A stretch of DNA of 64,000 nucleotides from Candidatus Wildermuthbacteria bacterium (GCA_016181405.1 JACOZJ010000002.1:10608-74607); one strand, 5' to 3'; positions 17,474 through 47,413 are shown, numbered from the stretch's first letter. Made by a program: numbers and translations. The notes: generated from the letters alone by a model not told the origin.

Positions 17474-17614
17474 CTGTGTACGTTATGCTATCTCATAGTA
17501 CACCAAAAGAAACCGCTTTGCATCTCCCCACAGAAGGAAAACTTTTCCCTTTTGTCTTGCCGTTCGCCGCGTTTTGTGTATAATATGGCATACGCACTTT
17601 CGGGAGGAAGCGAG

Positions 17615-18046
17615 ATGGAATGGACAAAGGTTCTCACGCCAGAGGAATACGAGCAGAACCGCAAAGGGATGGCGAAAGCACGTGGATTTCGCCGGCTCGG
17701 GAGCCGACTGTTCCGTACAACACTATTCTTGGGCTTCACTCTGATAAGCGTCGCTGGAGCGGGCAGCATCGGATGGCTCTCGCAAGACATCGTCATAATC
17801 GTCTTGACGATTGCGACGATACCGATTCTTTTGCTCATAATGGCTACCACATGGGCTATGGACAAATACTGGCAAACTCGACCCCGCAGTCAGTTCACGT
17901 TGATCACGTGCCCCAATTGCCAGCACCAAGACCGGGAGGGACACTTTACCCCAATCGAGCTCCTCGCCTGCCCAAGTTGCAGGAACACGGCTGCGCCGCA
18001 GGAGTACCAAACCGACGTGGTTGATGTACACTATAACCCGTCGTAG
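17615..18046 (+). CDS. Small two-TM membrane protein with a C-terminal CxxC...CxxC zinc ribbon (GC-richer plus-strand cassette)
   Basis: GGGAGGAAG SD lies 4 nt before the ATG at 17615 (MEWTKVL...). TATAAT at 17577-17582 excludes the ORF-track start at 17552. The ribbon is ITCPNCQHQDREGHFTPIELLACPSCRN. Confidence 0.65.
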   Translation: MEWTKVLTPEEYEQNRKGMAKARGFRRLGSRLFRTTLFLGFTLISVAGAGSIGWLSQDIVIIVLTIATIPILLLIMATTWAMDKYWQTRPRSQFTLITCPNCQHQDREGHFTPIELLACPSCRNTAAPQEYQTDVVDVHYNPS

Positions 18047-18061
18047 TGAGCACCCTAGAAA

Positions 18062-18100
18062 CCCCAAGTAACACATTCTTACGTGCTTGGGGTTTTTCTT
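18062..18100 (+). terminator. Intrinsic terminator
   Basis: CCCCAAG ... CTTGGGG stem followed by TTTTTCTTTT. Confidence 0.65.
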
Positions 18101-18139
18101 TTATCTCAATTCCATAATTTATTTCAGTCATTCACCATT

Positions 18140-18598
18140 TCATCTCCAACCATATTCGCTGTACATTACATCTTTGTCTATATATCCCAAAACTTCTCGA
18201 ATATAAGGAATGAGGTTTTCGGGAAGATCACTTTTATCAAACCAACTCAAATCATCGCACTTGTGCGGTTCAACATTTGCAATCTCCCCACTCCACCGCG
18301 CTGCAACGAAAAACACATCCGCACGTTCATTGTAGGAATCCTCACCCTTGCGATGCATCAAATGAACAAATCGCAAATCTTGCCCTCTCAATTCAACTCC
18401 CGCTTCTTCTTTCGCCTCGCGGATTATCGCATTGATATACGACTCCCCCTGCTCCACATGCCCGGAAACAAAACTGTAATTCCCATCTTCGTATCCCGTG
18501 TTGTATCTCCGCTGCAGCAGAATTTTATTTCCGTCTTGCAAAATTACATATGCCGCCGGAATAATTCTATGCCTATCTTTATTATTCGTCATCGCCAA
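18140..18598 (-). CDS. Nudix hydrolase
   Basis: Canonical Nudix box GHVEQGESYINAIIREAKEEAGV. Confidence 0.88.
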   Translation of the reverse strand: MAMTNNKDRHRIIPAAYVILQDGNKILLQRRYNTGYEDGNYSFVSGHVEQGESYINAIIREAKEEAGVELRGQDLRFVHLMHRKGEDSYNERADVFFVAARWSGEIANVEPHKCDDLSWFDKSDLPENLIPYIREVLGYIDKDVMYSEYGWR

Positions 18599-19013
18599 GC
18601 AACTTAAATAATCTTTCTTTTTCTTCTTCTGGTAAATCTTGATACAAAGGTTTTTGCACGGGGTCTGTCGCTTGGTGCAATTCGTCGTTCAAGTTGCGGG
18701 GATACAAATGAAAATGAAAATGTTTTATGCTCGTTCTGCTGTCTGAAACATAAGGTTTGTAATTTTGGCGAATGTCGCAGCCCGCAGAAAGTTTTGACAA
18801 AATCTTTTCTTCAAACTCAATAAGCAAATCTAAGAGTTCATTTCGCTCTTCTTTGGTCATTTCGGAAAGCCGCGTCACGTGCCGCTTTGGAATCACGAGC
18901 AAGTGGCCCGGCATTAGCCGCGGATTGCTCAAAATCACATGCATATACTTCCCCTCTTTGAGCGTCCGCTGTTCTTCTCTTGCCGATCCGCAAAACGGAC
19001 AATCCTTATTCAT
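18582..19013 (-). CDS. HIT-family (histidine triad) nucleotide hydrolase/transferase
   Basis: KHFHFHLYPR is an HxHxHxx motif. The N-terminus is MNKDCPFCGS. The ATG at 19013 forms an ATGA overlap with the upstream Nudix stop. The ORF-track extension was rejected. Confidence 0.85.
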   Translation of the reverse strand: MNKDCPFCGSAREEQRTLKEGKYMHVILSNPRLMPGHLLVIPKRHVTRLSEMTKEERNELLDLLIEFEEKILSKLSAGCDIRQNYKPYVSDSRTSIKHFHFHLYPRNLNDELHQATDPVQKPLYQDLPEEEKERLFKLLGDDE

Positions 19014-19441
19014 ATGTCTTTGTCTACTGCTTCCATAATCAGGTGGGTGCCGGGGAGCACATCGAGATGTTGGATCTCCTCTCTCCCATACCATTTCACT
19101 TCGGAAACTTTTTTGTCTAAAGGTTTCGGTTCGCCCGATATATGCCTCGCCTCAAAACTCCAAATAAATGCCTGAAGAGCAATACCATCATTCCTTTGCC
19201 ATATTTTATTATAAGCAAGCGGCAGAACTCGCACTATCTCAACAACACAGCCAGTTTCTTCTTTACACTCTCGACAAGCTGCTTGCTCTGGCGTCTCGCC
19301 GAACTCCACAACTCCGCCCGGAAACTCCCATTTGCCGTCTGCCTCCGGAATCAAAGGGTCAATCCTCTTTTGCATGAGAAATTTTCCCTCTGCGTTGCGG
19401 ACACACGCCACCGCAATAACCTTTTGCTTTTTATCCTCCAT
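19010..19441 (-). CDS. Nudix hydrolase (MutT-like)
   Basis: FPGGVVEFGETPEQAACRECKEETG. Start set to MEDKKQK (19441), just after the secA stop. Confidence 0.88.
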   Translation of the reverse strand: MEDKKQKVIAVACVRNAEGKFLMQKRIDPLIPEADGKWEFPGGVVEFGETPEQAACRECKEETGCVVEIVRVLPLAYNKIWQRNDGIALQAFIWSFEARHISGEPKPLDKKVSEVKWYGREEIQHLDVLPGTHLIMEAVDKDI

Positions 19442-21956: not shown

Positions 21957-21985
21957 GATAGATTTAAACTATACCACATTTTGCT

Positions 21986-22024
21986 CCAAAAACAAACCCG
22001 CCACATACCGTATGGTATGTGGCG
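21986..22024 (-). terminator. Intrinsic terminator between murB and secA
   Basis: The minus strand reads CGCCACATACC-atac-GGTATGTGGCG (11-bp perfect stem) followed by GGTTTGTTTTTGG. Confidence 0.75.
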
Positions 22025-22242
22025 AGGTTTGGAAAGAAAACTATCTCTTCTTTCTGCGGCGGGTTGTCTTCTTCGTAGTCTTCTTCTTTGAAGAAGCAGC
22101 CTTTCTTCTTTTTTTTGCTGGCATTGGTTTTGAAAAAATTTTCCAGACTAGTTATGAATTGTTTTGCGATAGCACGACCTTCACAAAAAATTACTATACA
22201 AAACAAATCTTTATTTCATTTTTTCATTACCAACACACTCTG

Positions 22243-23196: not shown

Positions 23197-23246
23197 ACTA
23201 GTATTTTTACCAATCCCCTCGGCCGAATGCAAGGTTTCTTGCGCTA

Positions 23247-23276
23247 TTGGCAAACATAGCACGCCTATGCTATAGT
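23247..23276 (+). promoter_or_regulatory. Sigma70-like promoter upstream of the tRNA-like gene
   Basis: TTGGCA (23247-23252), an 18-nt spacer, then TATAGT (23271-23276). Confidence 0.45.
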
Positions 23277-23341
23277 CAAAGCGGCAACTTAGACTCTCTC
23301 GAGCTGCCGGGTCGCATTCGGCAGCTTGTCATCTTATTAGT

Positions 23342-23419
23342 GCAGATGTAACTTCCTGGTACTCGCGGAAGTCACAGGGTTCATAACCCCCAGGTGCGGT
23401 TCGATTCCGCGCATCTGCA
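23342..23419 (+). tRNA. Atypical tRNA, best read as CAU anticodon (Met or Ile2-type); CCA not encoded
   Basis: Acceptor GCAGATG/CATCTGC, T-arm TGCGG-TTCGATT-CCGCG and anticodon loop TTCATAA (U33, CAT, A37). Unusual points are a 6-bp D-stem ACTTCC/GGAAGT with a 10-nt loop, and an anticodon stem CAGGG/CCCCC with only 3 GC pairs plus A.C and C.C mismatches. Confidence 0.6.
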
Positions 23420-23430
23420 CTAGGAAAATA

Positions 23431-23480
23431 AAACGAGGCACGTACTTATCATACCGTACTACCCTCGTTTTTCTTTTTTA
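23431..23480. terminator. Bidirectional intrinsic terminator (tRNA on the plus strand, helicase on the minus strand)
   Basis: AAACGAGG ... CCTCGTTT stem. It is flanked by TTTTCTTTTTT on the plus strand and by a T-rich run on the minus strand. Confidence 0.6.
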
Positions 23481-25163
23481 TTTCTGTTTTAAGGACCAAA
23501 AGTAGAGACGGATGGCGCGAAGCTTGTCAAACGACAGACTGTACCCCTGCTTATCAAGATCTCTTTTAATAGGACTTAAATAATCAAAACCCTCTTCTAT
23601 GGATGCCAGAGCGATTTCAACGGCTTTCTGAATGTGCTTGGGCGGAGCAAGATAAGAGAAATCGAGCGGGACGCCTTCTTTGAGCAAATTCTCCGCGTGG
23701 CCAATAATAGTGCCTAGGGTAAGATTCCGCTCTTTCGCTGCCTGCTCAAGCCTCATTCCTTTTTGCAGCAGCAAAAGCGTTTGTTCTTTGGTCGGAACGC
23801 GCTCTGCCTTTTTTAATCTTCCTTTCTCCTGCGGAGAAACCGCATGAAGTGAACCTCCGCACAGCGCAATAAACTTTTCCTGCCTTTCTCGCATGACGTC
23901 TGAGGAAAGCTCCGCCAAACGCGCCTCGGCTCTGGAAGAATGCGTCCTGAAGGCTTCATCTTTGGAAGCCACGTATTCATCAACCAGCAAAGCTGTTTCA
24001 TTGAGCGCCCGAAGATACAAGCCTGTAAGCGCACGCACCCGAGAAAGCGCCACGTATCCTTGCCCCGGCACAAATGAACGGCCAAGATCGATATCGGCTT
24101 CGTCTAACGTCATGCCCTGGCTCTTGTGCACAGTAATCGCCCAAGCAAGCCTGAGCGGCACTTGCGTAATTTCAGCCAATACTTTTCCGTCTTCCTCGCG
24201 CCTCCAGCTAGCAGGAAACGCGCGGATCGTATCCCCCGCCCTTGTTCGCACCACAGGATACCCCCCTTCAAACCCCGCGATTCTGCCTTGCGTTCCGTTT
24301 ACGTATTGAAAATTCTGCTCATTTTTTACGAACATTACTTCGGCGTCTTTTTTTAAACGAAGGTACTCGGGCGCCAGGCATCCGCGTATAAGCTGCTCCA
24401 CATACTGTTTTCTCCCCGCAGTTTGCATATGGAATAATTCTTCTTTCCCTTTGAGCATTGTTAATTGTTCCTCATTCAGGGCGTCCACATCAACGTTATG
24501 CGTAAAGAGCCGGGTGATTTGCCGCTCTTCCGTCAGCGACAATCCTTGTCGATTTTTGAGCTTCTCCCGTACCTCTTGGGTAACCTGCCCTCGCCGAATA
24601 GCAGAGAGAATAGCATAAAATGCATTGTCTTCGTGGCGAAACTGCTGGGTAAGATAGCAGGTTACCGGAGAAAGTTGCCTCCAGGCTTCTGACTCAAACG
24701 CGTAGGATGGCCGAACTCCTTCCCTCGCAACAGGAGGAAGCTGGAAGAAATCACCAGAGCACACGACCTGCATACCGCCGAAAGGCATATCGTTTCTCTT
24801 CATATGTCGGCATACCTGATCTACCATATTAAAAAACTCACCCGAAAGCATAGATATTTCGTCTATGATTAACACGCGTGCGGACTCAAAACGCCGCCAC
24901 AAAGGCTTCTTTTGCTCCATTTGCTCCAATTCAAAAGAAGAAACGCGTTCTCTAATACCAATACCAGACCAGGAATGAATAGTCGTTCCTTCAATGTGCG
25001 TGGCGGCAATGCCGGTGGACGCGGTTATGGCAGGCTCAATACCGTGCTGCCTAAGCCAGGCAATAAAGATGTTGAGCACATATGTTTTCCCTGTGCCAGC
25101 CTCACCTGTCAGATACACGCTATGCCCCATTTTTAAAATATTCAGCGCTTCGTGTTGTGTCAT
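23478..25163 (-). CDS. PIF1/RecD-family (SF1B) DNA helicase with a C-terminal HTH region
   Basis: YLTGEAGTGKTY (Walker A), LIIDEISML, GDFFQLPPV and TVHKSQGMT. Confidence 0.88.
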   Translation of the reverse strand: MTQHEALNILKMGHSVYLTGEAGTGKTYVLNIFIAWLRQHGIEPAITASTGIAATHIEGTTIHSWSGIGIRERVSSFELEQMEQKKPLWRRFESARVLIIDEISMLSGEFFNMVDQVCRHMKRNDMPFGGMQVVCSGDFFQLPPVAREGVRPSYAFESEAWRQLSPVTCYLTQQFRHEDNAFYAILSAIRRGQVTQEVREKLKNRQGLSLTEERQITRLFTHNVDVDALNEEQLTMLKGKEELFHMQTAGRKQYVEQLIRGCLAPEYLRLKKDAEVMFVKNEQNFQYVNGTQGRIAGFEGGYPVVRTRAGDTIRAFPASWRREEDGKVLAEITQVPLRLAWAITVHKSQGMTLDEADIDLGRSFVPGQGYVALSRVRALTGLYLRALNETALLVDEYVASKDEAFRTHSSRAEARLAELSSDVMRERQEKFIALCGGSLHAVSPQEKGRLKKAERVPTKEQTLLLLQKGMRLEQAAKERNLTLGTIIGHAENLLKEGVPLDFSYLAPPKHIQKAVEIALASIEEGFDYLSPIKRDLDKQGYSLSFDKLRAIRLYFWSLKQK

Positions 25164-25179
25164 ATACGCAGGTTTATTC

Positions 25180-25386
25180 TAAACCCGCCCCAGCTAAGCT
25201 GGGGCGGGGAAAATTCCTTATGAAACCGGGGCGGTAACCCCATGTTGTGAAACTTAATGAGTTCAGCCCCCGGTTTCAACTCCTATGATAGCAGTATCTT
25301 TATAAAAAGCAAAAGGCCTCACCTAGGGGAGGTCTTCTGCCGTTTCACGTCGGGGACGGACAACTTGCGTTGTACCGAACTCATTG
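25180..25386 (-). ncRNA. Candidate structured RNA of unknown family (an sRNA or the 5' leader of the helicase gene)
   Basis: It starts about 7 nt after a consensus promoter. Helices: AATGAGTTC/GAACTCATT (25377-85 with 25256-64), GTCCCC/GGGGGC (25352-57 with 25266-71), a GNRA-capped ACAAC-GCAA-GTTGT (25360-73), GAAACCGGGG/CCCCGGTTTC (25222-31 with 25268-77) and CCCGCCCCAGC-tta-GCTGGGGCGGG (25184-25208). No ORF is present. Confidence 0.5.
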
Positions 25387-25390
25387 CGCC

Positions 25391-25418
25391 ATTATACACT
25401 TTTAAAATAAATTGTCAA
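25391..25418 (-). promoter_or_regulatory. Consensus sigma70 promoter
   Basis: The minus strand reads TTGACA (25418-25413), a 16-nt spacer, then TATAAT (25396-25391). Confidence 0.7.
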
Positions 25419-25495
25419 TCCTGTAGTAGATTTTGGCCAGATTTCATCTATTTTTGTTTCGCATATGGCGAAACGGTCAAAAATTCACTACGGGG

Positions 25496-26752: not shown

Positions 26753-26787
26753 AGACTATAATATACCATAAATTATAGAGAAGTCAA

Positions 26788-28716: not shown

Positions 28717-29883
28717 TTACTGCGCATAGAAACCCTTCACCTGTTCGATCACGTACTGCACCTGCTCTAAGGTGAGCTCCGGATACATAGGGAAAGACAA
28801 CACTTCTCTGCAGATTTTTTCGGTTTCGGGCAATCCGCCAGCTGGCGGATGCACATCGCCGCCAGCGCTTACTAAACGGGGCATCCCACCTTGTACAAAT
28901 ACCGGCTCTTTGTACGTTGGTGTTCCCCACGAAATCATAGTTTCCACCCCCTGTTCTTGGAGAAACTTTGCAAGCTCGTCTCTGCGTTCGGCCCGTATAA
29001 CGTAATTGGTATAGATATCAGAGAAGCGAGGATCGCCAAAGTGCGGCACTTGCACTTGAGCTACTCCCCCTAACCCTTGATGATACAGTTCAGCTATCTC
29101 TTTTCTTCTTTGAAGCCACTGGGGGAAATATTTGAACTTCACTTGCAAAAGTGCGGCCTGAAGGTTATCCATCAAAAAATTGTGAGCATGATAGTAAAAA
29201 TGTCGGTCTTCACGATTCTCGCCGTTGTAGCGCATCAGTCTTGCTTTTTCGGCAATCGCAGGATCATTCGTTGTAATCATTCCACTGCCACCAAAACCCC
29301 CCAGTGCTTTTGCCCAGTACAAACTGAAACATCCCGCAACGCCGAAAGATCCGGCTGACTGCGCAGCGCCGTCTGCCATCTTCATACTGGCGCCTAGAGA
29401 CTGCGCCGCATCTTCTATGACTATCAAACCCTTGCGCTTTGCGATATCCATGATCACTTCCATGTCGCACAGCCGTCCGTTTAAGTGTACGGGCATAATG
29501 GCTTTTGTTTTGGGCGTGATGGCTTTTTCCAAAAGTCTCGTATCCATATTAAAATCTTGGCCAACATCCACGAGCACCGGTGTTGCTCCTGCAAGATATA
29601 TAGAAGATATGCTCGCGATAAACGTGTGAGCCACAGTAATTACCTCATCCCCCTGGCCGATGCCGGCTGCTTGCAAAGCCACGTCTAAAGCCGACGTGCC
29701 AGAGTTTACGCCAATACCGTACTTTACGCCCACAAACTTGGCAAAATCCTCTTCGAACTTCCAGAGCTCTTCTTTGTTTACAATTGCGCCGCGAGAAAGC
29801 GTGTCATCAAACGCCTTGATGAATTCTTCTCTATGGTCGGCATATTGTTTTGCCGGATTCGCAAACCGCACTTTGTATTCCAT
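28717..29883 (-). CDS. DegT/DnrJ/EryC1/StrS-family sugar aminotransferase (PglE/WecE-like)
   Basis: GVNSGTSALDVAL, DEVITVAHTFIAS and CFSLYWAKALG. ATG at 29883; the ORF-track start at 29904 is a TTG. Confidence 0.88.
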   Translation of the reverse strand: MEYKVRFANPAKQYADHREEFIKAFDDTLSRGAIVNKEELWKFEEDFAKFVGVKYGIGVNSGTSALDVALQAAGIGQGDEVITVAHTFIASISSIYLAGATPVLVDVGQDFNMDTRLLEKAITPKTKAIMPVHLNGRLCDMEVIMDIAKRKGLIVIEDAAQSLGASMKMADGAAQSAGSFGVAGCFSLYWAKALGGFGGSGMITTNDPAIAEKARLMRYNGENREDRHFYYHAHNFLMDNLQAALLQVKFKYFPQWLQRRKEIAELYHQGLGGVAQVQVPHFGDPRFSDIYTNYVIRAERRDELAKFLQEQGVETMISWGTPTYKEPVFVQGGMPRLVSAGGDVHPPAGGLPETEKICREVLSFPMYPELTLEQVQYVIEQVKGFYAQ

Positions 29884-30028
29884 ATAGCTTTTATGGTAGC
29901 TCAAAAACTCTGCTTCCGCAAGTTTGACATTTAAGCAAAGTTATGCCACTCTTTGCAGTCGCATACCCGTAGACAGACGGTCAGAGCGATCGTCTTCTGA
30001 GCGAGTTACCAAACTCCCAAAGTCAAAA

Positions 30029-30068
30029 CCCCCACCGGTCGTATGACCGCGCCGGGGGATTTTCTTTT
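30029..30068. terminator. GC-rich hairpin terminator, copy A (usable on both strands)
   Basis: CCCCCACCGGTCGTATGACCGCGCCGGGGG followed by ATTTTCTTTT. On the minus strand TTTTG follows the hairpin after the stop of 30078-30539. It is 29/30 identical to 31355-31384. Confidence 0.65.
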
Positions 30069-30077
30069 AGTTTAAAA

Positions 30078-30539
30078 TTATGCCTGTCCAACTTTAATTT
30101 TACCTCCTGGGACACAAATGCTAATTTCCATTCCATAAGCCACTCCGGGAATTTTTACGCTTAAAAGTTCTACTGTATCATCGGCATGCGACTTTACGTC
30201 TGACGGACATGGGTAGTAAATATACCCTTCGTACTCCTTCCTCTCATAGTCGATCAATGTTTTTACGAACCAGAATGTCTCTGTAAGTTCTTCAAACCAC
30301 GTGCAAGTCACCCGATAATCTGGTTCAACTATCTTAAATGTGAACGGAGATATATCTACATTAATAGTACCACTATACATTTCGGAAATGCCCTCTACTC
30401 CCGCTTTCTCAAAGAATGGTTTTTGCAGAGCAATCGTATTGTTGAGTTTCATTCCGAGCTTAACTGGCGGATTTGGGTTCAAACCAGACGCTATTCTTAA
30501 CCCCTGTTTTATTTTCCCTTTTACCATTACTTCTTTCAT
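30078..30539 (-). CDS. Hypothetical protein (weak resemblance to the DUF120/CTP-dependent riboflavin-kinase beta-barrel)
   Basis: 153 aa. GKIKQGLRIASG...SGTINVDI...YYPCPSDVKSHADDTVELLS recalls G.V.SG.G...GTLN...H..EII. The family call is low confidence. Confidence 0.55.
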   Translation of the reverse strand: MKEVMVKGKIKQGLRIASGLNPNPPVKLGMKLNNTIALQKPFFEKAGVEGISEMYSGTINVDISPFTFKIVEPDYRVTCTWFEELTETFWFVKTLIDYERKEYEGYIYYPCPSDVKSHADDTVELLSVKIPGVAYGMEISICVPGGKIKVGQA

Positions 30540-30575
30540 GGAAGTATTATACGTTAAAATCCTCTTTCCGCAAAT

Positions 30576-30604
30576 TTGACAAGCTATAAAAATTGTGCTA
30601 CTAT
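30576..30604 (+). promoter_or_regulatory. Sigma70-like promoter of the GC-rich HAD cassette
   Basis: TTGACA (30576-81), a 17-nt spacer, then TACTAT (30599-604). A GGAAGGAGAG SD precedes the ATG at 30641. Confidence 0.55.
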
Positions 30605-30640
30605 TCCCCCAGTATCACCGCTCATAGGAAGGAGAGCGCG

Positions 30641-31345
30641 ATGGCGATCAAAGGGGTTGCCTTCGACCTGGAAGACACGGTTATTCATGTTGGTAACGTG
30701 CACTTTGAAGCATTCGCCCGTGCGGCGGAAGAGATCGGCGTCATATTCGACCGGAACAATCTGGCCGCAGACATCGCCCGCCAAATTGAGAATGCCATTG
30801 GAGGCGGAGACGCACTCATTGCCGAAGGCATCTCGCAATTATCGGGTAGGAGTGCTGCCGGAGCAGAGATTCGGCGCCGCAAGGTGAGGTTTTACGACGA
30901 GATCATAGAAGGCTTCGTTTCGATCGAACCTCGCCCTGGATTTTTGGACGTTCTGGAGCAAATTCGCACCCGGGGATTTCCAATAGCGATTGCATCGATG
31001 ACTCCGAGGAGGCAGGCGGAAATCCTGCTCGAGCGGTCGGGTATTGCCAAGATTTTCCCGGGAAACCTCATTCTTCTCGAGGATTCTGTGAAGCACCTCA
31101 AGCCGGCGCCTGATGTGTATCTTGAGGCGGCACGACGGATGGGGATTCCCCCGTCCAAACAGCTTGTCTTCGAAGATTCGGCCACCGGCATCAAGGCGGC
31201 TCGCGCTGCTGGATCGCCGGTAATCGCAATGCCCGGCTACACCTTCTCGGAGAATCTAACGAAACTCCGGGAAGCGGGTGCCACCAAGATCTTCTATGGT
31301 TGGGAGGAAGTGGACATCGCCGCTCTCCTCCAAGAGTTCGACTAA
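30641..31345 (+). CDS. HAD-IA family phosphatase (beta-phosphoglucomutase-like), GC-richer cassette
   Basis: Motif I is VAFDLEDTV (D-x-E variant). IASMT and FEDSATGIKAARAAG are present. The ORF-track start at 30593 lies upstream of the predicted -10 element. Confidence 0.8.
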   Translation: MAIKGVAFDLEDTVIHVGNVHFEAFARAAEEIGVIFDRNNLAADIARQIENAIGGGDALIAEGISQLSGRSAAGAEIRRRKVRFYDEIIEGFVSIEPRPGFLDVLEQIRTRGFPIAIASMTPRRQAEILLERSGIAKIFPGNLILLEDSVKHLKPAPDVYLEAARRMGIPPSKQLVFEDSATGIKAARAAGSPVIAMPGYTFSENLTKLREAGATKIFYGWEEVDIAALLQEFD

Positions 31346-31354
31346 ACCACCAAG

Positions 31355-31399
31355 CCCCCGCCGGTCGTATGACCGCGCCGGGGGCTTCTTTCTTTTTTT
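31355..31399 (+). terminator. GC-rich hairpin terminator, copy B
   Basis: CCCCCGCCGGTCGTATGACCGCGCCGGGGG followed by CTTCTTTCTTTTTTT. Confidence 0.7.
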
Positions 31400-31500
31400 A
31401 GGAGAGATTTTTTATCCAGTCCCCAATAGCCTCTTAGGAACTTTGCTCTTGAGAGGCTTATTTATTGATTTAGGAGAATGAATTTATTACAGTGGAAAGT

Positions 31501-32160
31501 ATGAGTTATCGAACAAAAGCAGTCATTTTTGATATGGATGGTACTCTTGTGAATACCGACGCCGTAACCCCTGAATTAGAGAAAAATATGTTGAAAGATT
31601 TGGGAGTTCCATACACCGATGAGTTTGAAAAAGAAATCAGCGGTTTGTCCATACGCGAATTGTACAGCCTTATACAAAAAAAATACGTTCCTGACTTTTC
31701 GGTAGAGAAGGCGAATAAAGCATACGCAGATCTCGCAAAAACAGTATACCAAGAACGATCGAGTTTAATGCCTGGGGCAAAGGAATTAATCTTTCTGTTG
31801 CAAAGAAAACATATTCCTATGGCTATAGCTTCCGCCGCACCCAAAGAATGGATCGATATGTTTGTGAAACGATTTGAATTTGAGGAAACATTTCAGCATC
31901 TTCTTTCGATACACTCCATGCAACTTCCTTCCAAGCCTAATCCAGCAATTTTCAACGAAGCAATCCAACTTTTAAACGTAGAGCCGCAAGATACGGTAAT
32001 TTTTGAGGATACGGCGAGAGGTGTTCAGGCAGGGAAGATGGCTGGCGCTCGCGTGGTCGCGGTGCCAGACAAAAGATGGAGTTTTGGAGATTTCAGCTCG
32101 GCAGATCTTGTTGCGAACACTCTGCAAGATCCAAATATAATCCCTTTTCTATTTTCCTAA
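31501..32160 (+). CDS. HAD-IA family phosphatase (canonical DxDGT)
   Basis: AVIFDMDGTLVNTD, ASAAPKEW and FEDTARGVQAGKMAGARVVAV. ATG at 31501 (GTG at 31492 is possible). Its 3' end overlaps the convergent aminotransferase by 12 nt. Confidence 0.82.
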   Translation: MSYRTKAVIFDMDGTLVNTDAVTPELEKNMLKDLGVPYTDEFEKEISGLSIRELYSLIQKKYVPDFSVEKANKAYADLAKTVYQERSSLMPGAKELIFLLQRKHIPMAIASAAPKEWIDMFVKRFEFEETFQHLLSIHSMQLPSKPNPAIFNEAIQLLNVEPQDTVIFEDTARGVQAGKMAGARVVAVPDKRWSFGDFSSADLVANTLQDPNIIPFLFS

Positions 32161-33381: not shown

Positions 33382-33419
33382 ATAAAAATATTATACTCTT
33401 GTACTCACAACCCCGCAAC

Positions 33420-33448
33420 TTGACACTTCCTTAAACTTACATTATACT
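33420..33448 (+). promoter_or_regulatory. Sigma70-like promoter of the GC-rich two-gene island
   Basis: CCGCAAC-TTGACA (33420-25), a 17-nt spacer, then TATACT (33443-48). An AGGAGG SD lies at 33483-88. Confidence 0.55.
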
Positions 33449-33494
33449 AGCACCCACTGGAGATCCCAGCACACCATGGAGCAGGAGGCCAGAG

Positions 33495-34265
33495 ATGGTA
33501 GAGAAAGTCCGAGTGGACAATATCGCCAGCGTGGGGATCATCTACAGGAGGTTCCACCCAGACCAGATCTTGATTGACATCAAGGATGGAGGGTATCCGC
33601 TCAAGGCATTCAGGTGGATGCTCTGCCCCATCGGAGGAAACTGGATCGGGCCTACAGCCCGCAACGACCAGAACACCCGAGATACCTTGATCCGCGAGAT
33701 GAGCGAGGAACTCTCTCTCGATTCGAGGGAAACCTCCACGGAAGACGCAGCGCTGCTGGGCCTCGAGCCCGAGCAAGCGACATACGTGGTTCCCAAGAAG
33801 GGCGTTGCGTCGACCGACGAAGATCGCGAGAAGCTCGGGCGCCTCAAGGGGGCCTTCGCAAACACTGCAGAGCCCTTCGGTGATTTCCTAGTCAACGTAC
33901 CGAAGTCGGTGCTCGACCGGGGAGTCCCCGACAACACCCGGCCAGGTTACACTTCCATCCTTTCCTACTGGCGCGTGCCAGTGGACGAAGAGGATTGGGC
34001 GACTCTCGTCGATATGCATGCAAAGTACGGCAACCTCTCTGTCGAGAGTATAGCCGTAATCATCTCGCTCGAAGAAATCGTGACCACGCGCAGGCACACC
34101 TGCTGCGGCCACGATCGGATCCTGCAACAATGGTTTGCGAGCATGGGGTGCGTCGAAACGATGCATCTCCCCCTGCTCCCTGATATCTTCTGCGCCTACC
34201 TCCATCAACCGCTCGCGAGCTACGAAGAGTACCTCGAGCGGTACGAGGTAGTCAGGCACCCCTAG
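33495..34265 (+). CDS. Divergent Nudix-fold protein with a C-terminal extension (GC-rich island)
   Basis: GGNWIGPTARNDQNTRDTLIREMSEELSL aligns to the Nudix box (REMSEEL = REUxEEx), but the upstream Glu and the Gly are replaced. About 120 aa of unassigned C-terminal domain follow. Confidence 0.6.
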   Translation: MVEKVRVDNIASVGIIYRRFHPDQILIDIKDGGYPLKAFRWMLCPIGGNWIGPTARNDQNTRDTLIREMSEELSLDSRETSTEDAALLGLEPEQATYVVPKKGVASTDEDREKLGRLKGAFANTAEPFGDFLVNVPKSVLDRGVPDNTRPGYTSILSYWRVPVDEEDWATLVDMHAKYGNLSVESIAVIISLEEIVTTRRHTCCGHDRILQQWFASMGCVETMHLPLLPDIFCAYLHQPLASYEEYLERYEVVRHP

Positions 34266-34407
34266 CACCTTTCAAGCGCCTGGCGGAAATTCGTTTTCGT
34301 ATCAACGACAACGAACCCGCTCGGCGCTTCTTTTTTAGTTGACAACCGCAAAAAAAGTGGTAAGCTTTAACCACGAGGAATCGTAAACTACCGAAGGAGT
34401 TTCAAGC

Positions 34408-35247
34408 ATGGAGAACCTACAAGAAGAGCGTTGGCTCGCAATTGAGCTCGCGGTCCGCGGGGGCGAGATGATCCAAACAGCTCTCTCCTCTGCCAGATCT
34501 CCCGAGGCAATCGGGCGCAGGTGGTCGCGCGCGCGCCACACCGAAATCAAAACCAAGATCGACAAAGATGTCGATGATATGTTGAGAGGCGAAATCCAGC
34601 GCGCTTTTCTGGACGATGCGATTCTCTCTGAAGAGAATGCGCCTCGAGAAGGAAAGTCTGGGAGAGTTTGGGTCATTGATCCAATCGACGGCACTCTCAA
34701 CCTCCAAGATCCGCTTTTCGGAACATTTGGAGTATGCGTGGCTCTCGCGGTGGACAACGTCCCAGTCTTGGGAGTTGTCTTCTCGCCTGATGTAAGGGCT
34801 GGACGCGGTGGACGCATTTGGATCGGAGAAGAAGGCAAGCAAGCGCTTTACTCTCCCGATTATCCCAATGTGGAACCCACGGGAACGCACGTTTCTGACT
34901 GCGCCATACGCAATCACGCGATCGGCGCTTTCGACTCGGGCAAACACGATCGGGCTGTCGTGTATCCCTACGTGAAAAAACTGGATCACGACACAGCCGG
35001 CGTGACCTGCGTATACCGCATTGCTTCAGCATCCATGTCTCTTGCTGCGGTTGCAACTGGAGATTGGGATTTTTACGGTGCCACTTCTGCAGAATCCGAA
35101 GACCTATCAGCGATGGTCCCAATCTTGAAAGGCACCGGAGCTGTAGTCACCACTCTCGACGGCCGGCCGTGGACCATTAAAGAACCGTCGATCCTGACGG
35201 CCAACTCTGTACTCCATGGCGATCTCCTGCAGTACCTTAACTCATAG
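34408..35247 (+). CDS. Inositol-monophosphatase-family phosphatase (second, GC-rich paralogue)
   Basis: ILSEENAP, VWVIDPIDGTLNL and WDFYGATSAESEDL...GTGAVVTTLDG. A GAAGGAG SD is present. Confidence 0.8.
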   Translation: MENLQEERWLAIELAVRGGEMIQTALSSARSPEAIGRRWSRARHTEIKTKIDKDVDDMLRGEIQRAFLDDAILSEENAPREGKSGRVWVIDPIDGTLNLQDPLFGTFGVCVALAVDNVPVLGVVFSPDVRAGRGGRIWIGEEGKQALYSPDYPNVEPTGTHVSDCAIRNHAIGAFDSGKHDRAVVYPYVKKLDHDTAGVTCVYRIASASMSLAAVATGDWDFYGATSAESEDLSAMVPILKGTGAVVTTLDGRPWTIKEPSILTANSVLHGDLLQYLNS

Positions 35248-35255
35248 AACACAAG

Positions 35256-35288
35256 CCCCTGCTGTTGCCGGCAAGGGGATTTTCTTTT
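35256..35288 (+). terminator. Intrinsic terminator of the GC-rich island
   Basis: CCCCTGCTGTTGCCGGCAAGGGG followed by ATTTTCTTTT. The T-run overlaps the stop codon of the convergent truncated transketolase subunit. Confidence 0.65.
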
Positions 35289-37909: not shown

Positions 37910-38004
37910 ACAATATGTTCAATCTTACCAATTTTCTCTTGCAAAAACAATTCGTGCAAAATAGGAGAGCCCACGCTGTACACGTGAGCCCCTTCGCAAT
38001 ACGT

Positions 38005-39054
38005 TTAGCGACCCTCAACAAGATCGCAGATTGCCGATGCCCCAACAGCGGGATCGAACGGCATAAGTTGATCTCGCGCCTCGCTGGAGCAAGGATTCAG
38101 CAAGGCCAAGTTCACAGGAGTTACCACGAGATCCGCGACGCCAAGTACCACCTGCGGCACCTCCAGCAAACCAGACTCTTCCTGGAGAGATTTCTGAACC
38201 GCCGGCGTCACAAGAGCAGCTACAGGAACTCCTGCTTTAGCTGCCGTCGTCAGCAACGTGGAAAATCCGGCGAGAACCAAATCCGAAGCAACAACAATGT
38301 TATCGGTTGGTGGCCCGTCCACACGAACTACACGATCCCCAAGCGGCGCCAGCAAGGCGTTCCACGTTTCCCGGTACGGCTGGTTGCCGTTTTTTTTATC
38401 CGGGCGGTCTGCCTCTTTAGGGTGCCAACGAGGGATCAGCTTCCACGGTTTGCTCGTAACCGCCAAGCATTGGGATAGAAGATCTATCTGCTCGGCGGTT
38501 TCGGAGCCGCCTCCGCAGAATGCAATAACCAGTTCGCCTCCATACCGCATCCAATAAACCTCCGGGTCTGGCTCAACGCCCACCCGAACACCAGGATTGC
38601 CCGTGATGCATATCTTCGTCTTTCGGCCAAAATCTTGCCGGACAAGGCTTGATGAATACTCATCAAGCGTAAGCGCAAGATCTGGAGGTCGGCGAAGGCC
38701 GGTGATGCGTCGGAAACCTCCCCAAAAATCCTCCATGAGAACCAGTGGAATATGGTGAATTTGCGCAGCGCGCGCAAACTCCCCTTCCAAATGGCTCGGG
38801 GAACCTACGCCCACAACCACCACGTCGGGACGATAATATCCAAGTACCGCTCCCACATCCAGCGAGAAAGGAACTATCCTGTAGTCATCGGTACCGCGGA
38901 AGATCGGCGGTACCGAGCACAGCTGGGACCAAAGATAAGCCCCCATCCCCTCTAAAACGGGGAACACCTCGTGGCCCTGGTTGCTTAACACCTGCGCAAT
39001 GGGGGCAACCACGTTAGCTCCACCCATATCCTTGCAAACCGTCACTATCTTCAA
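38005..39054 (-). CDS. GC-rich uncharacterised protein, possibly a GT-B-fold glycosyltransferase-like enzyme
   Basis: 349 aa with a TTG start and AAGGGG 8 nt upstream. MKIVTVCKDMGGANVVAPIAQVL and two Rossmann-like halves are present. No diagnostic motif was recognised. It lies between a terminator and the next methyltransferase. Confidence 0.55.
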   Translation of the reverse strand: MKIVTVCKDMGGANVVAPIAQVLSNQGHEVFPVLEGMGAYLWSQLCSVPPIFRGTDDYRIVPFSLDVGAVLGYYRPDVVVVGVGSPSHLEGEFARAAQIHHIPLVLMEDFWGGFRRITGLRRPPDLALTLDEYSSSLVRQDFGRKTKICITGNPGVRVGVEPDPEVYWMRYGGELVIAFCGGGSETAEQIDLLSQCLAVTSKPWKLIPRWHPKEADRPDKKNGNQPYRETWNALLAPLGDRVVRVDGPPTDNIVVASDLVLAGFSTLLTTAAKAGVPVAALVTPAVQKSLQEESGLLEVPQVVLGVADLVVTPVNLALLNPCSSEARDQLMPFDPAVGASAICDLVEGR

Positions 39055-39083
39055 CTCACGCCCCTTTCAAACAGCTAACTACA

Positions 39084-39118
39084 AAAAAGCACAAAAAATC
39101 GGGAACGTCAAGTTTCCG
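39084..39118 (-). terminator. Intrinsic terminator after methyltransferase 39146-39970
   Basis: The minus strand reads CGGAAAC-ttgac-GTTCCCG followed by ATTTTTTGTGCTTTTTT. Confidence 0.6.
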
Positions 39119-39145
39119 ATTTTCAAAACTCTCACCTATTTACTA

Positions 39146-39970
39146 TTACTTCTTATGCAGCTCAAACGTAAACATCCACGACATCATTTTTATGAGTGGG
39201 ATCTTGAGGAATACTTTGTCTAAAGCATTCAAAAAAGGCAGGGCAGAAGGCACGTACGCAGCTGCAATACTAAACAAATGCCAATGCCTAATGTTTTTTA
39301 CCTCAAAAAATCTTTTTGCAAACCCAATCTCTTTGTAGGAAAGAATGTGCCGCTTTTCCCAATCAGTGCGCAAATGAGGCGTAAGCATACGATACGCCTT
39401 AATGGCAGGGTTGCAATCCAATGCCTCCACTGCCAAAAGCACTCCTCCCTTTTTCAAAATCCTCCTTAACTCCGGAAACGCATACGATAAATCCAAATGA
39501 TGCAGCATGCCAGAGCAGATAACAACATCCACAGATTCATTAGGAAGACCGGTATTCTCGCAATCTCCCTGGAGAAAATAGGTATTTCTCAAAACCCCTT
39601 CTTTTTCGGCTAACGCGCGGGCATTCTTAATAGAAACATCGCTTATATCCAAACCAATTGCCAACTCTGCCCCTGCTTTTGCCGCTTTCACGGCATTCTC
39701 CCCATCGCCGCAGGCATAATCCAAAAAGATTTTGCCCTTGCTATATTGAGCTATCCAGGCATCAACATACTCATTAATGAGGTGCGCGGTCTGGTAGAAC
39801 TTGGCATTCTCGTGAAGCTTCTCATACTCGCCTTCCGCAAGTGTTTTATCTTTGTCTATATTATGAAATTCAATTTCCTTTTGTTTCCTCTCGTCCAAAG
39901 AAGCTAGCCACTCCTCGTTTGTCTTCTTGCTTACACTGTCTAGTTGTTCAATAAGTTCTTGTGTAGTCAT
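39146..39970 (-). CDS. Class I SAM-dependent methyltransferase
   Basis: FLDYACGDGENAVKAAKAGAELAIGLDIS and VVICSGMLHHL. Confidence 0.82.
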   Translation of the reverse strand: MTTQELIEQLDSVSKKTNEEWLASLDERKQKEIEFHNIDKDKTLAEGEYEKLHENAKFYQTAHLINEYVDAWIAQYSKGKIFLDYACGDGENAVKAAKAGAELAIGLDISDVSIKNARALAEKEGVLRNTYFLQGDCENTGLPNESVDVVICSGMLHHLDLSYAFPELRRILKKGGVLLAVEALDCNPAIKAYRMLTPHLRTDWEKRHILSYKEIGFAKRFFEVKNIRHWHLFSIAAAYVPSALPFLNALDKVFLKIPLIKMMSWMFTFELHKK

Positions 39971-46024: not shown

Positions 46025-46034
46025 ATATTTATTT

Positions 46035-46730
46035 TTATTTGTTCTGCGTATCGTATTTTAGTTTTGTTATGCGAAATTGGCTAAAATATCTTTCGGCTTT
46101 TTCTTCAGAGTCGTTTTCTCTCTCCACCAACTGGACCATGGTTTCGCTCACCACTTTCTTGAGCGGTATATCTCTTACCTTTTCAAACCCGCACCGTTGA
46201 TACAAAACGATAGCTCTTTCGTTATCAGAAAATACCCGCAACGTAAGAGCTTGAAGCCCCAAGGCAGTGAATGACCAGTTCAATAAACTCTTAAGCGCCA
46301 TGGTCATAATTCCCGGCATTGCATCTTGTTTTCCTCTCATGACGTTGTCAATCTCGCATGAACGGTCTTCAAAATCGAATCGGTAAAGACCTATGTGACC
46401 GAGCAAGGAATCGTCTAAAGCTTGAATCCAAAACAAGATCCGATCTTCAGCTTCAATCACTTGGGCTTGCACCCACTTCTTTGTCCCTTCTTCTGTAACT
46501 TTAAATTGTGAAGGGAACCATTGGGCGTTTGCTTCCCGCCATTCGGCAAGAAACTTCACCTCTTCTTCGGTAAAGTCTGCGGTCAATGGCACTAGATGAG
46601 CTACCACTTCCTCTTTGTTATAAATCGGAATCATCAGCTTGCTGCCCCTGTCAAACTTAAGAGCTCTCAACGTCGACAAAACCTTGCTGCGAAATTCTGT
46701 ATTTTCATTTGTCATCAAGGGCTTATCCAT
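46035..46730 (-). CDS. GNAT-family N-acetyltransferase with an N-terminal extension
   Basis: GHIGLYRFDFEDRSCEIDNV...LTLRVFSDNERAIVLYQRCGFEKV. Confidence 0.8.
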   Translation of the reverse strand: MDKPLMTNENTEFRSKVLSTLRALKFDRGSKLMIPIYNKEEVVAHLVPLTADFTEEEVKFLAEWREANAQWFPSQFKVTEEGTKKWVQAQVIEAEDRILFWIQALDDSLLGHIGLYRFDFEDRSCEIDNVMRGKQDAMPGIMTMALKSLLNWSFTALGLQALTLRVFSDNERAIVLYQRCGFEKVRDIPLKKVVSETMVQLVERENDSEEKAERYFSQFRITKLKYDTQNK

Positions 46731-46766
46731 AGGAACTTTATATCATACAATATCCATCTTTTCTAC

Positions 46767-46794
46767 TTGACATTTTCGATAAATAATGTATATT
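46767..46794 (+). promoter_or_regulatory. Sigma70-like promoter of the GC-rich Nudix-fold cassette
   Basis: TTGACA (46767-72), a 16-nt spacer, then TATATT (46789-94). A TAGGAGGAAA SD precedes the ATG at 46839. Confidence 0.55.
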
Positions 46795-46838
46795 CTGCTT
46801 ACCGTAGCTGAGACTACGAACTCCATAGGAGGAAACCC

Positions 46839-47348
46839 ATGGACATCAATGGCGTTGATCTTTCAAAACTACCCCAGAGCGAGCTGAAGGTGCTCGCGGC
46901 ACGGGCCATACGGCTCGTGCAGAATCCCGAAAAGGGAATCGGCACAGAGCTCTTCGAGGCCTTGCTGAAGATCGTGCCTCAAGCCTGTGTCGAGACGGTG
47001 GTGGTGGATGACCTGAACCATCCCCACCGTATCTACCTCACGTGGCGGGAGGACGAGCATTACCGAGGTTGGCATTGCCCGGGCACCTACATTCGCCTCG
47101 GCGAGAGCTTCGAGGACGCCATCCGCCGCGTTCTCCAGCAAGAGATCAATGTGGAGCTCCGCAACTTTCGCTCCACAAAGATCCAGTACAGTCATGTAGA
47201 CTCCCGCGGCCACACCATCGGGACCGTCTGGCTTGTCCAGGCCGATGGAGAGCCGACCGGCGGGAAGTGGCTCCGCGTCAGCCAGCTCCCCGAGCCGACG
47301 CTCCCCCACCACGTCCAGTTCATCCAAGAGGTATTGAGCAAGCTATAG
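46839..47348 (+). CDS. Divergent Nudix-fold protein (GC-rich cassette)
   Basis: CPGTYIRLGESFEDAIRRVLQQEINVEL aligns to PGG....GES...A..RE..EE.G, but REUxEE is replaced by RRVLQQE. Confidence 0.6.
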   Translation: MDINGVDLSKLPQSELKVLAARAIRLVQNPEKGIGTELFEALLKIVPQACVETVVVDDLNHPHRIYLTWREDEHYRGWHCPGTYIRLGESFEDAIRRVLQQEINVELRNFRSTKIQYSHVDSRGHTIGTVWLVQADGEPTGGKWLRVSQLPEPTLPHHVQFIQEVLSKL

Positions 47349-47373
47349 CGCTCGCTCTCAATACTCCCATTGC

Positions 47374-47413
47374 ACCCACCGCGAGTTCTCCGGAGCTCTA
47401 GGTGGGTTTTCTT
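47374..47413 (+). terminator. Intrinsic terminator
   Basis: ACCCACC ... GGTGGGT stem (7 bp) followed by TTTTCTT. Confidence 0.6.

Follow-up and report, generated by a model that had tools for sequence, protein, structure and literature searches.

The stretch of DNA analyzed here, called the window throughout, comprises 64,000 nucleotides (nt) from a Candidatus Wildermuthbacteria bacterium (GCA_016181405.1, JACOZJ010000002.1:10608-74607), a groundwater organism with a tiny genome, and contains six genes with approximately 10 points more G+C than their neighbours. Overall, the window has a GC content of 46.4%, and nearly all of its genes are encoded on the minus strand. The searched window proteins gave exact matches to hypothetical proteins (HYT49_00255 and HYT49_00260) on a 239.5-kb contig of a Candidatus Wildermuthbacteria metagenome-assembled genome (MAG), and the closest relatives of the native aminotransferase were found in MAGs of Wildermuthbacteria, Paceibacterota and other members of the Candidate Phyla Radiation (CPR). 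An origin from Firmicutes, which SecA and the 46% GC had first suggested, was rejected on the basis of these relatives. The left part of the window carries housekeeping genes (LepA, MurJ, RNase P RNA, PGK, SecDF, SecA and MurB), and a glycan cluster of the nonulosonic-acid type extends from about 26.8 kb to the window end. This cluster encodes PseB/PseC-like enzymes, several DegT aminotransferases, split transketolase-like proteins, methyltransferases, glycosyltransferases, NeuB, a CMP-sugar cytidylyltransferase, a polysialyltransferase-like protein, a Wzx-type flippase and a polyprenyl-phosphate sugar transferase. The GC-rich genes belong to it with the exception of the gene at 17615 (unit 1), which is located outside the cluster near SecA. 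Five of the six genes lie on the plus strand, each in a unit composed of a sigma70-type promoter, a 25-40-nt leader with a strong Shine-Dalgarno sequence (SD), a GC-rich coding sequence and an intrinsic terminator facing a convergent native operon. The components are listed below, with GC3 denoting the GC content at third codon positions and L numbers denoting loci of relatives.

17557..17584, plus strand: unit 1 promoter, TTGCCG-16-TATAAT
17615..18046, plus strand: unit 1 cargo of 143 amino acids (aa) with two predicted membrane segments and a C-terminal CxxC...CxxC zinc ribbon; GC 0.546, GC3 0.660, SD GGAGG 5 nt before the ATG
18057..18105, plus strand: unit 1 terminator, CCCCAAG...CTTGGGG followed by TTTTTCTTTT; -18 kcal/mol, z -4.4
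29924..29952, plus strand: promoter of the putatively empty unit a, TTGACA-17-CACTCT, homologous to the promoter of a PP2C-like gene in L019 and L026
29953..30028, plus strand: interior of unit a, about 70 nt of unrelated sequence in the place of the PP2C-like gene of L019/L026
30029..30074, plus strand: unit a terminator, with a 21-nt core identical to that of the unit b terminator
30576..30604, plus strand: unit b promoter, TTGACA-17-TACTAT with TG extension, 95-98% identical to L019
30641..31345, plus strand: unit b cargo, HAD-superfamily phosphatase (beta-PGM-like subfamily); GC 0.559, SD AAGGAG at 4 nt
31352..31400, plus strand: unit b terminator; -27.4 kcal/mol, z -4.7
31492/31501-32160, plus strand: additional HAD phosphatase directly after unit b; GC 0.417, no clear SD
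33420..33448, plus strand: unit c promoter, TTGACA-17-TATACT
33495..34265, plus strand: unit c cargo, 256-aa protein with predicted Nudix fold; GC 0.582, GC3 0.747, SD AGGAGG at 4 nt
34274..34337, plus strand: unit c terminator, long compound hairpin AAGCGCCTGGCGG...CCGCTCGGCGCTT followed by a T-run; -31.4 kcal/mol, z -6.8
34339..34366, plus strand: unit d promoter, TTGACA-16-TAAGCT, preceded by TGG
34408..35247, plus strand: unit d cargo, inositol-monophosphatase-family phosphatase (IMPase); GC 0.549, GC3 0.568, SD AAGGAG at 6 nt
35256..35288, plus strand: unit d terminator, weak hairpin followed by ATTTTCTTTT; -13.9 kcal/mol, z -1.65
37966..37992, minus strand: terminator after 38005; -17.4 kcal/mol, z -2.7
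38005..39054, minus strand: GC-rich co-directional gene encoding 349 aa; GC 0.558, weak SD-like AAAGGGG
39080..39112, minus strand: terminator of the upstream native gene 39146-39970, isolating 38005 from that transcript; -11.3 kcal/mol, z -2.4
46767..46794, plus strand: unit e promoter, TTGACA-16-TATATT
46839..47348, plus strand: unit e cargo, 169-aa Nudix protein; GC 0.600, GC3 0.776, SD AGGAGG at 4 nt
47374..47415, plus strand: unit e terminator; -22.9 kcal/mol, z -5.3

Gene statistics rest on a curated set of 62 genes, the 6 candidates and 56 native genes, and the native spread is that of the 64-kb window, not of the whole genome. Against this spread all six genes were outliers: the candidates had a GC content of 0.546-0.600 and a GC3 of 0.566-0.776, compared to 0.452±0.028 (maximum 0.517) and 0.458±0.038 (maximum 0.547) in the native genes, corresponding to z-scores of 3.4-5.3 and 2.8-8.3, respectively. 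Every candidate exceeded every native gene in both measures, without any overlap in rank (Mann-Whitney p = 1.6e-8). The set of GC-richer genes proposed in the initial annotation, including the sixth on the minus strand, is borne out by these values, and all ten of its hand counts of GC in 60-nt lines were exact on recount. GC at first and second codon positions (GC1 and GC2) was raised as well, indicating that also the amino-acid composition differs: the GARP/FYMINK ratio was 1.09-1.86 in the candidates versus mostly 0.6-1.0 in natives, and candidate proteins are rich in Gly, Ala, Arg and Pro, native paralogues in Lys, Asn and Phe. Tetranucleotide profiles correlated among candidates with r 0.45-0.64 and between candidates and natives with r -0.04 to 0.28. 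In codon usage, the five plus-strand candidates were nearer to each other than to natives, which did not apply to 38005, and the codon bias of the candidates consists mainly in a preference for NNC over NNT. The step in GC content matches the borders of the transcription units.

Minus-strand operons are indeed interrupted by five GC-rich genes on the plus strand, as initially described, but the plus strand is not synonymous with GC-richness, since it also carries the low-GC HAD gene 31501-32160, the RNase P RNA and a tRNA-like element. Strand orientation as cause of the GC-richness is ruled out by this HAD gene (GC 0.417) together with the minus-strand gene 38005 (GC 0.558). The low-GC HAD gene is missing in L019 and L026, indicating a separate, window-specific gain from a low-GC source. 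The sign of the GC skew at third codon positions was the same as in native genes of the leading strand in 27 of 27 GC-rich genes (6 in the window and 21 in relatives). This skew is fixed to the strand and independent of the reading direction, with the co-directional 38005 orthologues included, and such a host-type pattern implies that the genes have either resided for long in their present orientation or been swapped between corresponding slots of similar genomes.

The promoters of units a, b and c stand back-to-back with the TTGCGG -35 element of a divergent, leaderless-looking native gene, namely the DegT gene for unit a, gene 30078-30539 (TTGCGG-16-TATAAT) for unit b and the aminotransferase gene 32149-33381 (TTGCGG-17-TATAAT) for unit c. 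In the divergent native promoters, TTGCGG-16/17-TATAAT is followed after only 6-8 nt by the ATG. A CCGCAA·TTGACA box was considered as a shared motif of the units and rejected, because CCGCAA is the reverse complement of the native -35 element; in L022 and L023, a similar string lies within the DegT coding sequence. Function thus explains part of the likeness between the promoters of units a and b, which are 76% identical over 50 nt. The four promoters named in the initial annotation, those of units 1, b, c and e, were all located, whereas its view that 34408 lacks a clean promoter has to be revised: unit d possesses its own TTGACA at 34339, and both this hexamer and the 16/17-nt spacing recur in L026 and L005 with differing -10 hexamers (TAATTT and TAATCT). 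For the divergent DegT gene (28717-29904, minus strand), the longest open reading frame (ORF) starts with TTG at 29904, and the annotation of L026 uses an ATG approximately 24 nt downstream. This downstream ATG, with TACCAT 8 nt upstream of it, would be leaderless, and the ATG further upstream (29930) lies in another reading frame. Calling start codons in this genome requires gene finding that allows for leaderless genes.

Strong SDs (GGAGG, AAGGAG or AGGAGG, 5-6 nt long and 4-6 nt before the ATG) were present in five of five plus-strand candidates and at that spacing in none of the 56 native genes, the nearest native cases being 4-nt matches at 6-8 nt. The confinement of strong SDs to the plus-strand units that had been noticed at first sight is therefore upheld. 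In contrast, TATAAT-like hexamers ending 4-12 nt before the start codon were found in 9 of 51 native genes versus 1.5 expected, a signature of leaderless or near-leaderless mRNAs, and genes internal to operons were also devoid of SDs. From these signals, the native genes look SD-less and either leaderless or translationally coupled.

Fold prediction placed a GC-rich hairpin with a T-run after the stop codons, with energies of -18 to -31 kcal/mol (z -4.4 to -6.8) in four of the five plus-strand units and a marginal value in unit d. The hairpins noted earlier after the units thus exist, but their ranking is different: the terminator after 33495, previously described as the weaker one, is the strongest, and the one after 34408 is marginal. 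Of the two reported copies of a 14-mer, the first stands at 30055 and the second at 35275 rather than 35274, and there is an additional copy with one mismatch at 18089, where 0.12 copies would be expected by chance. The copy at 30055 follows no gene and belongs to the terminator of the putatively empty unit.

In the intergenic region 29904-30078, the promoter TTGACA-17-CACTCT is followed by a terminator about 100 nt later, and in L019 and L026 a GC-rich PP2C-like gene of 277-279 aa stands between the homologous promoter and terminator. Comparison with these loci identifies 29924-30074 of the window as an empty shell, the interior of which is possibly without cargo or encodes a short transcript; it had no match in Rfam, even at E ≤ 1. 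Promoter and terminator modules are common to different cargo at 83-95% identity: the terminators of the PP2C-like gene and the HAD gene, both from L026, agree in 47/52 positions, those of PP2C (L004) and HAD (L026) in 38/42, and the terminator after 33495 in the window matches both sides of the aldo/keto reductase gene of L005 (44/51 and 44/53). The terminator duplication at 30026/31352 constitutes the only border repeats of the units, which are not bounded by any tRNA, integrase or direct repeat. In L019, a segment of about 50 nt, CCCTCCATAATTCTATCGTTTTAAAACTGCGATAGCATAATTAAAACGA, is repeated after both unit terminators (approximately 2105-2180 and 705-780 in locus coordinates), downstream of minus-strand native genes. 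It contains the palindrome CTATCG...CGATAG, and its first 10 nt or so (CCCTCCATAA) also occur after the HAD terminator of L026.

The same class of genes was recognized in L019, L026/L027, L031, L028, L004, L005, L033, L034 and L035, and thus in at least ten related genomes. There, mostly opposite-strand genes with a GC content of 0.52-0.59 and a strong SD are set against main-strand genes with 0.40-0.51 and no SD, which amounts to an offset of +0.07 to +0.13. In L026/L027, the order is DegT (minus), PP2C-like (plus), a 153-aa gene (minus), HAD (plus), aminotransferase (minus), 33495 (plus) and IMPase (plus), followed by a Nudix gene and an AAA_33 kinase gene, both on the plus strand. In L004, native genes abut at the positions where the window has 33495 plus 34408 and 38005, and two PP2C-like genes are found elsewhere. 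In L005, the slot of 33495 and the IMPase is filled by Nudix, aldo/keto reductase and IMPase genes. 38005 is present only in L031 and L032, in the same slot, and is missing in L004, L005 and L028, so that the presence of 33495, 34408, 38005 and unit a is patchy among close relatives. A single mobility gene was encountered in the vicinity of a unit: L031 begins at the contig edge (1-170) with the C-terminus of an IS30-type transposase (...LNTRPRKRLGYLTPLEA...), which stops some 70 nt upstream of this locus's 38005 homologue. In more distant CPR loci (L022 from Daviesbacteria, L023 and L030), the 33495 family is again represented by a single gene within a glycan cluster, in divergent orientation to a DegT/aminotransferase gene, and the GC excess is small or absent.

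The divergence of the units does not follow that of their surroundings. Between the window and L019, nucleotide identity is 91-94% in the flanks and 95-98% in the unit b promoter, but at the leader it drops steeply to 58-73% and stays at this level over most of the HAD coding sequence; the terminators differ as well. Among the window, L019 and L026, identity at four-fold degenerate sites was 0.72-0.87 for native genes versus 0.39-0.56 for HAD, IMPase and 33495, and amino-acid identity was 0.84-0.95 versus 0.59-0.75. The four-fold values of the cargo are near saturation, a depth that native genes reach only in comparison to L004 and L005. With synonymous sites near saturation, relaxed constraint is insufficient as a cause. 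The HAD of unit b shares 59-65% of its amino acids with the same-slot copies of L019, L026 and L031. The IMPase had an identity of 0.64 with the copy in L026, a close genome, and of 0.70 with that in the distant L005, whereas the adjacent aminotransferase gave 0.94 and 0.72, respectively, which contradicts a simple rate increase. This discordance in relatedness was evaluated from pairwise distances only, and 38005, which looks vertical, is excepted from it. Identity matrices of the alleles are star-like, with values mostly of 59-70%. Deep variation of alleles and content between conserved flanks extends to the native genes n35795 and n36577, which have deep alleles between close genomes at native GC content, indicating that the locus is a recombination mosaic and that recombination by itself does not raise GC. 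Between the window and L031, 38005 had a four-fold identity of 0.79, equal to the flanks, at an amino-acid identity of only 0.77, and it is GC-rich in both.

By family assignment, the cargo comprises a HAD protein, an IMPase, two Nudix proteins, a GT-B-like protein and a small membrane zinc-ribbon protein, and in relatives additionally PP2C-like, aldo/keto-reductase and AAA_33 kinase proteins. Plausible substrates of this cargo are the sugar phosphates and nucleotide sugars that arise as intermediates in the surrounding pathway. Family searches covered 33495, the IMPase and the Nudix protein 46839, with 38005 searched against representatives, and the HAD 30641 and 17615 stood outside them. The 33495 family counts 42 clusters among 5.8 billion and the 46839 family 11 clusters; the IMPase belongs to a clade of approximately 7 clusters at 65-69% identity, followed by sequences with ≤41%. 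The 38005 family has 326 representative clusters, with the nearest at 53% and the next at ≤42%. Every named match of 33495, the IMPase and the 46839 Nudix protein was from CPR. None of the contigs examined was uniformly GC-rich and carried a close homologue; the homologues were always GC-rich inserts among lower-GC glycan genes. Viral contigs were scanned for 33495 and 17615 and contained no relatives of either, and for these two candidates a phage origin was dismissed. The 17615 protein had no match in Pfam or NCBIfam.

The protein 33495 has no Pfam match. Its AlphaFold model had a predicted local distance difference test score (pLDDT) of 95.4 and all top Foldseek matches were Nudix proteins, which identifies it as a Nudix fold at the level of the model. 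Residues R67, E68, E71, E72, G52 and D58 were invariant in 40 relatives. Compared to the canonical GX5EX7REUXEEXGU, the box has D in place of the first E and a spacing of 8 instead of 7 residues. Of the two Nudix folds with degraded catalytic boxes suggested by the initial annotation, the fold of 33495 can therefore be retained, but an invariant REXXEE core is not clearly degraded. 38005 is probably a GT-B glycosyltransferase-fold protein and not a phosphohydrolase, the category originally assumed for most of the products. The sole lead on its function is that 11 of 41 relatives touch Glyco_transf_4; searches of PDB by sequence and profile gave no match, and the single-sequence AlphaFold model (pLDDT 42) was too low for use. 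Longest-ORF calling selected an antisense ORF in a GC-rich stretch (L019 2155-2832), and genes were consequently set by homology. In public gene calls, antisense ORFs replace the GC-rich 33495 homologue or are fused across it (L026 7723-9861, a 712-aa fused 'aminotransferase', and L027 6926-7858, a 310-aa ORF). GC-rich units in these MAGs are thus prone to annotation on the wrong strand.

On balance, and with modest confidence, we favour the view that the six genes represent a lineage-wide class of self-contained accessory units that are exchanged by recombination among related CPR genomes. Recombination is the process that we infer to connect the anatomy, composition, recurrence, presence and absence, synonymous excess, discordance, shared shells and assembly integrity observed at these loci. 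The units would be insulated, monocistronic, SD-led modules for accessory glycan-pathway enzymes, with transcription and translation predicted from their signals. Homologous recombination within conserved flanks and shells would allow related CPR genomes to swap alleles and cargo, and no dedicated recombinase would be involved. Behaviour as replaceable modules would cover the loss of cargo in the empty shell, different cargo between homologous shells, and deep alleles where the flanks are 90-95% identical. GC-richness would mark a gene pool with a history apart from that of the core genome. This pool would probably stem from a source that was richer in GC and used SDs, with its genes still being exchanged and in part ameliorated. 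The persistence of the GC excess across saturated sites would then be due either to continual replacement from a GC-richer pool or to some other force that keeps the units GC-rich.

Several points weigh against this view. The locus L030 has the same gene set and keeps the SDs without GC excess, indicating that architecture and composition are separable. 38005 is, as judged from its sequence divergence, vertical since the split from L031 and has a fast-evolving protein, and it nevertheless stays GC-rich. The IMPase is GC-rich at the same slot in the window and in the distant L005. The strand-fixed skew fits long residence, during which foreign GC should ameliorate, so that a force acting in situ may be needed. 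Neither a donor nor a recombination event was seen directly, and no pair of distant hosts shares a near-identical allele. No donor lineage of matching composition, only relatives from CPR, emerged from searches of limited sensitivity, as these require shared 5-residue words and could miss distant non-CPR relatives of the HAD, IMPase and Nudix proteins.

Among known systems, the behaviour closest to that of the units is, by analogy, found in hypervariable surface-polysaccharide loci and compositional islands. Loci for O-antigen, capsule and flagellin glycosylation are hypervariable islands of atypical GC content with deep alleles that are exchanged via conserved flanks. The units resemble them in their location in a glycan/nonulosonic-acid cluster, their atypical composition, and the combination of presence/absence with very deep alleles in close genomes, conserved flanks and a mosaic that includes some native genes. 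In contrast to such loci, only small accessory hydrolases are atypical here and not the glycosyltransferases or the flippase, the units are GC-richer and not GC-poorer, and each forms an insulated, monocistronic unit with an SD not used by the rest of the genome.

The alternative that survives best, although we regard it as unlikely, is that the six genes are ordinary native accessory genes without any separate pool, whose composition and fast divergence arose in situ by codon selection in strongly expressed SD-led genes, GC-biased gene conversion or mutation associated with transcription or orientation. The GC offset in many genomes broadly tracks host GC (slope of about 1, r 0.76), as would be expected for resident genes, and the GC3 skew of all 27 units is that of the natives. 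High expression is suggested by the near-consensus promoters, strong SDs and strong terminators, and a bias for NNC over NNT is also seen in highly expressed genes of many bacteria. The divergence boundary near the transcription start and the vertical but GC-rich 38005 likewise fit this explanation. However, codon selection would lower synonymous divergence, whereas the four-fold sites of the cargo are near saturation, unlike the flanks, and the divergence of the IMPase does not rise with host distance. The shift in GC1, GC2 and amino-acid composition, and the occurrence of the architecture without GC excess in L030, argue in the same direction. Orientation does not cause the excess, as seen from the low-GC plus-strand HAD and the high-GC minus-strand 38005, and GC-biased gene conversion through recombination alone is weakened by n35795 and n36577, which have deep alleles yet retain native GC. 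Furthermore, C exceeds T at third positions on the coding strand of the plus-strand units, opposite to what is generally expected from deamination of the non-transcribed strand.

Recent, independent gains from a higher-GC, SD-using donor, either a non-CPR bacterium or the host of an episymbiont, are in our estimation very improbable. The atypical GC content, codon usage, amino-acid composition and SD usage as well as the patchy presence among relatives are what such a capture would leave behind. In the amelioration model of horizontally acquired genes, reportedly introduced by Lawrence and Ochman, heterogeneous GC3 (0.57-0.78) together with uniformly high GC1/GC2 resembles stages of adjustment, and GC3 is indeed nearer to the host in the apparently older residents (IMPase and 38005) than in 33495 and the Nudix gene. 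In their deviant GC, GC3, codon usage, amino-acid composition and patchy distribution, the units resemble compositional islands, but they are single genes at scattered, fixed syntenic slots and not one island, they have no tRNA, integrase or direct-repeat border, and their GC excess persists at host divergences with saturated synonymous sites. The close relatives of 33495, the IMPase and the Nudix protein are few, the named ones are only from CPR and those examined sit in CPR-type glycan clusters, among contigs that were never uniformly GC-rich around a close homologue. The same slots are occupied in at least ten genomes with promoters conserved like the flanks, every unit carries the host-type GC3 skew, and viral contigs yielded no matches for 33495 or 17615. 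Together, the CPR-only named relatives, the conserved slots and promoters and the skew make a recent capture from outside unlikely. From the proposal of the initial annotation that ready-to-express foreign genes had been acquired repeatedly, the separate compositional and regulatory class, its distinct history and its readiness for expression can be kept, but not the higher-GC donor outside the lineage.

Similarly hard to sustain is a dedicated cassette system, in which a site-specific recombinase or transposase acts on repeated hairpin modules in an integron-like or new element. Shared shells around different cargo and one empty shell, which lend some support to the cassette-type vehicle considered at the outset, would be in line with such a system, as would the segment of about 50 nt repeated after both terminators of L019 and, in L031, the IS30-type transposase C-terminus that precedes the 38005 homologue by about 70 nt. 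However, scans of nearly all gene-sized ORFs with Pfam or NCBIfam detected no integrase, transposase or other recombinase in the 64-kb window, in agreement with the initial remark that no mobility gene is nearby, and no att-like core was seen there. The junction of units c and d reads GTTGACA and showed no GTTRRRY-type core when inspected by eye, without a pattern scan, and target-site duplications were not observed either. The terminators could also have come to resemble each other through local duplication or gene conversion. Like integron cassettes, the units are single-gene modules with variable cargo, bounds formed by imperfect inverted repeats and one empty module. Unlike them, they have their own promoter and SD, are dispersed over fixed syntenic slots and mostly antiparallel to their neighbours, and their hairpins are followed by T-runs as in ordinary intrinsic terminators and do not resemble attC; IntI, attI and Pc are missing in the window. 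The units are therefore not integron cassettes.

An assembly or binning artefact, with GC-rich pieces from a different organism built into a contig of lower GC, might be suspected because the GC content changes sharply at the unit borders and the sequence derives from a MAG, but its probability is negligible. Two assemblies of independent read sets match the window at 100% identity in 30342-34314 and 32699-35271, across six junctions, which refutes it for 30.3-35.3 kb and rules out that units b, c and d were joined chimerically. In addition, contigs from many unrelated projects show the same mosaics, and unit promoters stand back-to-back with native promoters.

Several features of the window lie apart from the units:

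4985-5394, plus strand: RNase P RNA, a plus-strand RNA gene
9548-11227, minus strand: TrwB/TraG-type (type IV coupling protein-like) ATPase with treble-clef zinc finger, of native composition among housekeeping genes
23342-23419, plus strand: tRNA-like element with T-arm GGTTCGATTCC and an anticodon-loop-like TTCATAA (CAT)
23478-25163, minus strand: PIF1-like helicase with C-terminal HTH_40, of native composition

The tRNA-like element scored 24.9 bits with the Rfam tRNA model (gathering score 29) and was missed by ARAGORN. It occupies the gap beside the PIF1 helicase gene, with a promoter-like site at 23247-23276 and a hairpin at 23300-23328. The helicase gene itself is present in the window, L019 and L026 and missing in L004, where the flanking genes abut, and hence shows a presence/absence polymorphism. 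Upstream of it, at approximately 25180-25418 on the minus strand, a perfect-consensus promoter (TTGACA-16-TATAAT, 12/12) is followed by about 190 nt that look structured by eye and end in a hairpin with T-run (CCCCGCCCCAGCTTAGCTGGGGCGGG, then TTT). This region, which had no Rfam match at E ≤ 1, is a candidate for a small RNA or a long regulated leader. Toward the left end of the window, a direct repeat of 47 nt without mismatches (5427-5473 and 6852-6898, 1425 nt apart) flanks a gene for a beta-lactamase-fold/PBP-like protein (5470-6876); one copy overlaps the start of an RNase H/RVT_3 gene and the other lies just past the RNase P RNA. It could be a recent duplication, an insertion junction or an assembly repeat.

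Returning to the view of exchangeable units, a tentative and rather unlikely extension of it would be that the genome uses two expression dialects, an SD-less/leaderless core and an exchangeable pool of SD-led modules, whose shells serve as homology arms for recombinase-independent swapping. Mycobacteria and Deinococcus mix leaderless and SD-led initiation, and SD-poor Bacteroidota keep strong SDs in a few genes, such as rpsU. Two initiation regimes, with a strongly SD-led minority beside an SD-less/leaderless core, would be common to these genomes and the window, but here the SD-led minority is a compositional class of accessory, exchangeable genes, and internal operon genes also have no SDs. 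In the literature, of which our coverage was incomplete, we did not find an earlier account of a GC-rich class coinciding with the SD-led class in an otherwise SD-less CPR genome, a coincidence that recurs here across at least ten genomes. If the two-dialect reading were true, strong SDs would form a separate translational control channel for the pool. This would be especially striking if the lineage were among those Parcubacteria, about half of the group, that were reported to lack the anti-SD motif (PMC9297842); that report does not name Wildermuthbacteria.

CPR genomes are small and streamlined, and little is understood of the ways in which CPR bacteria acquire and diversify functions. In at least ten related genomes, the turnover of the class of genes described here is several times that of the genome around it, at a locus for the cell surface, which is probably the interface with hosts and phages. 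Since the class is recognizable from sequence alone, by its GC offset, its SDs in an SD-less background and its insulated units, its distribution could be charted in thousands of CPR MAGs. A GC excess that is kept in situ and not imported would point to an unexplained, gene-specific compositional force. The units also offer a concrete test of SD-led initiation in a lineage whose core genes do not use SDs.

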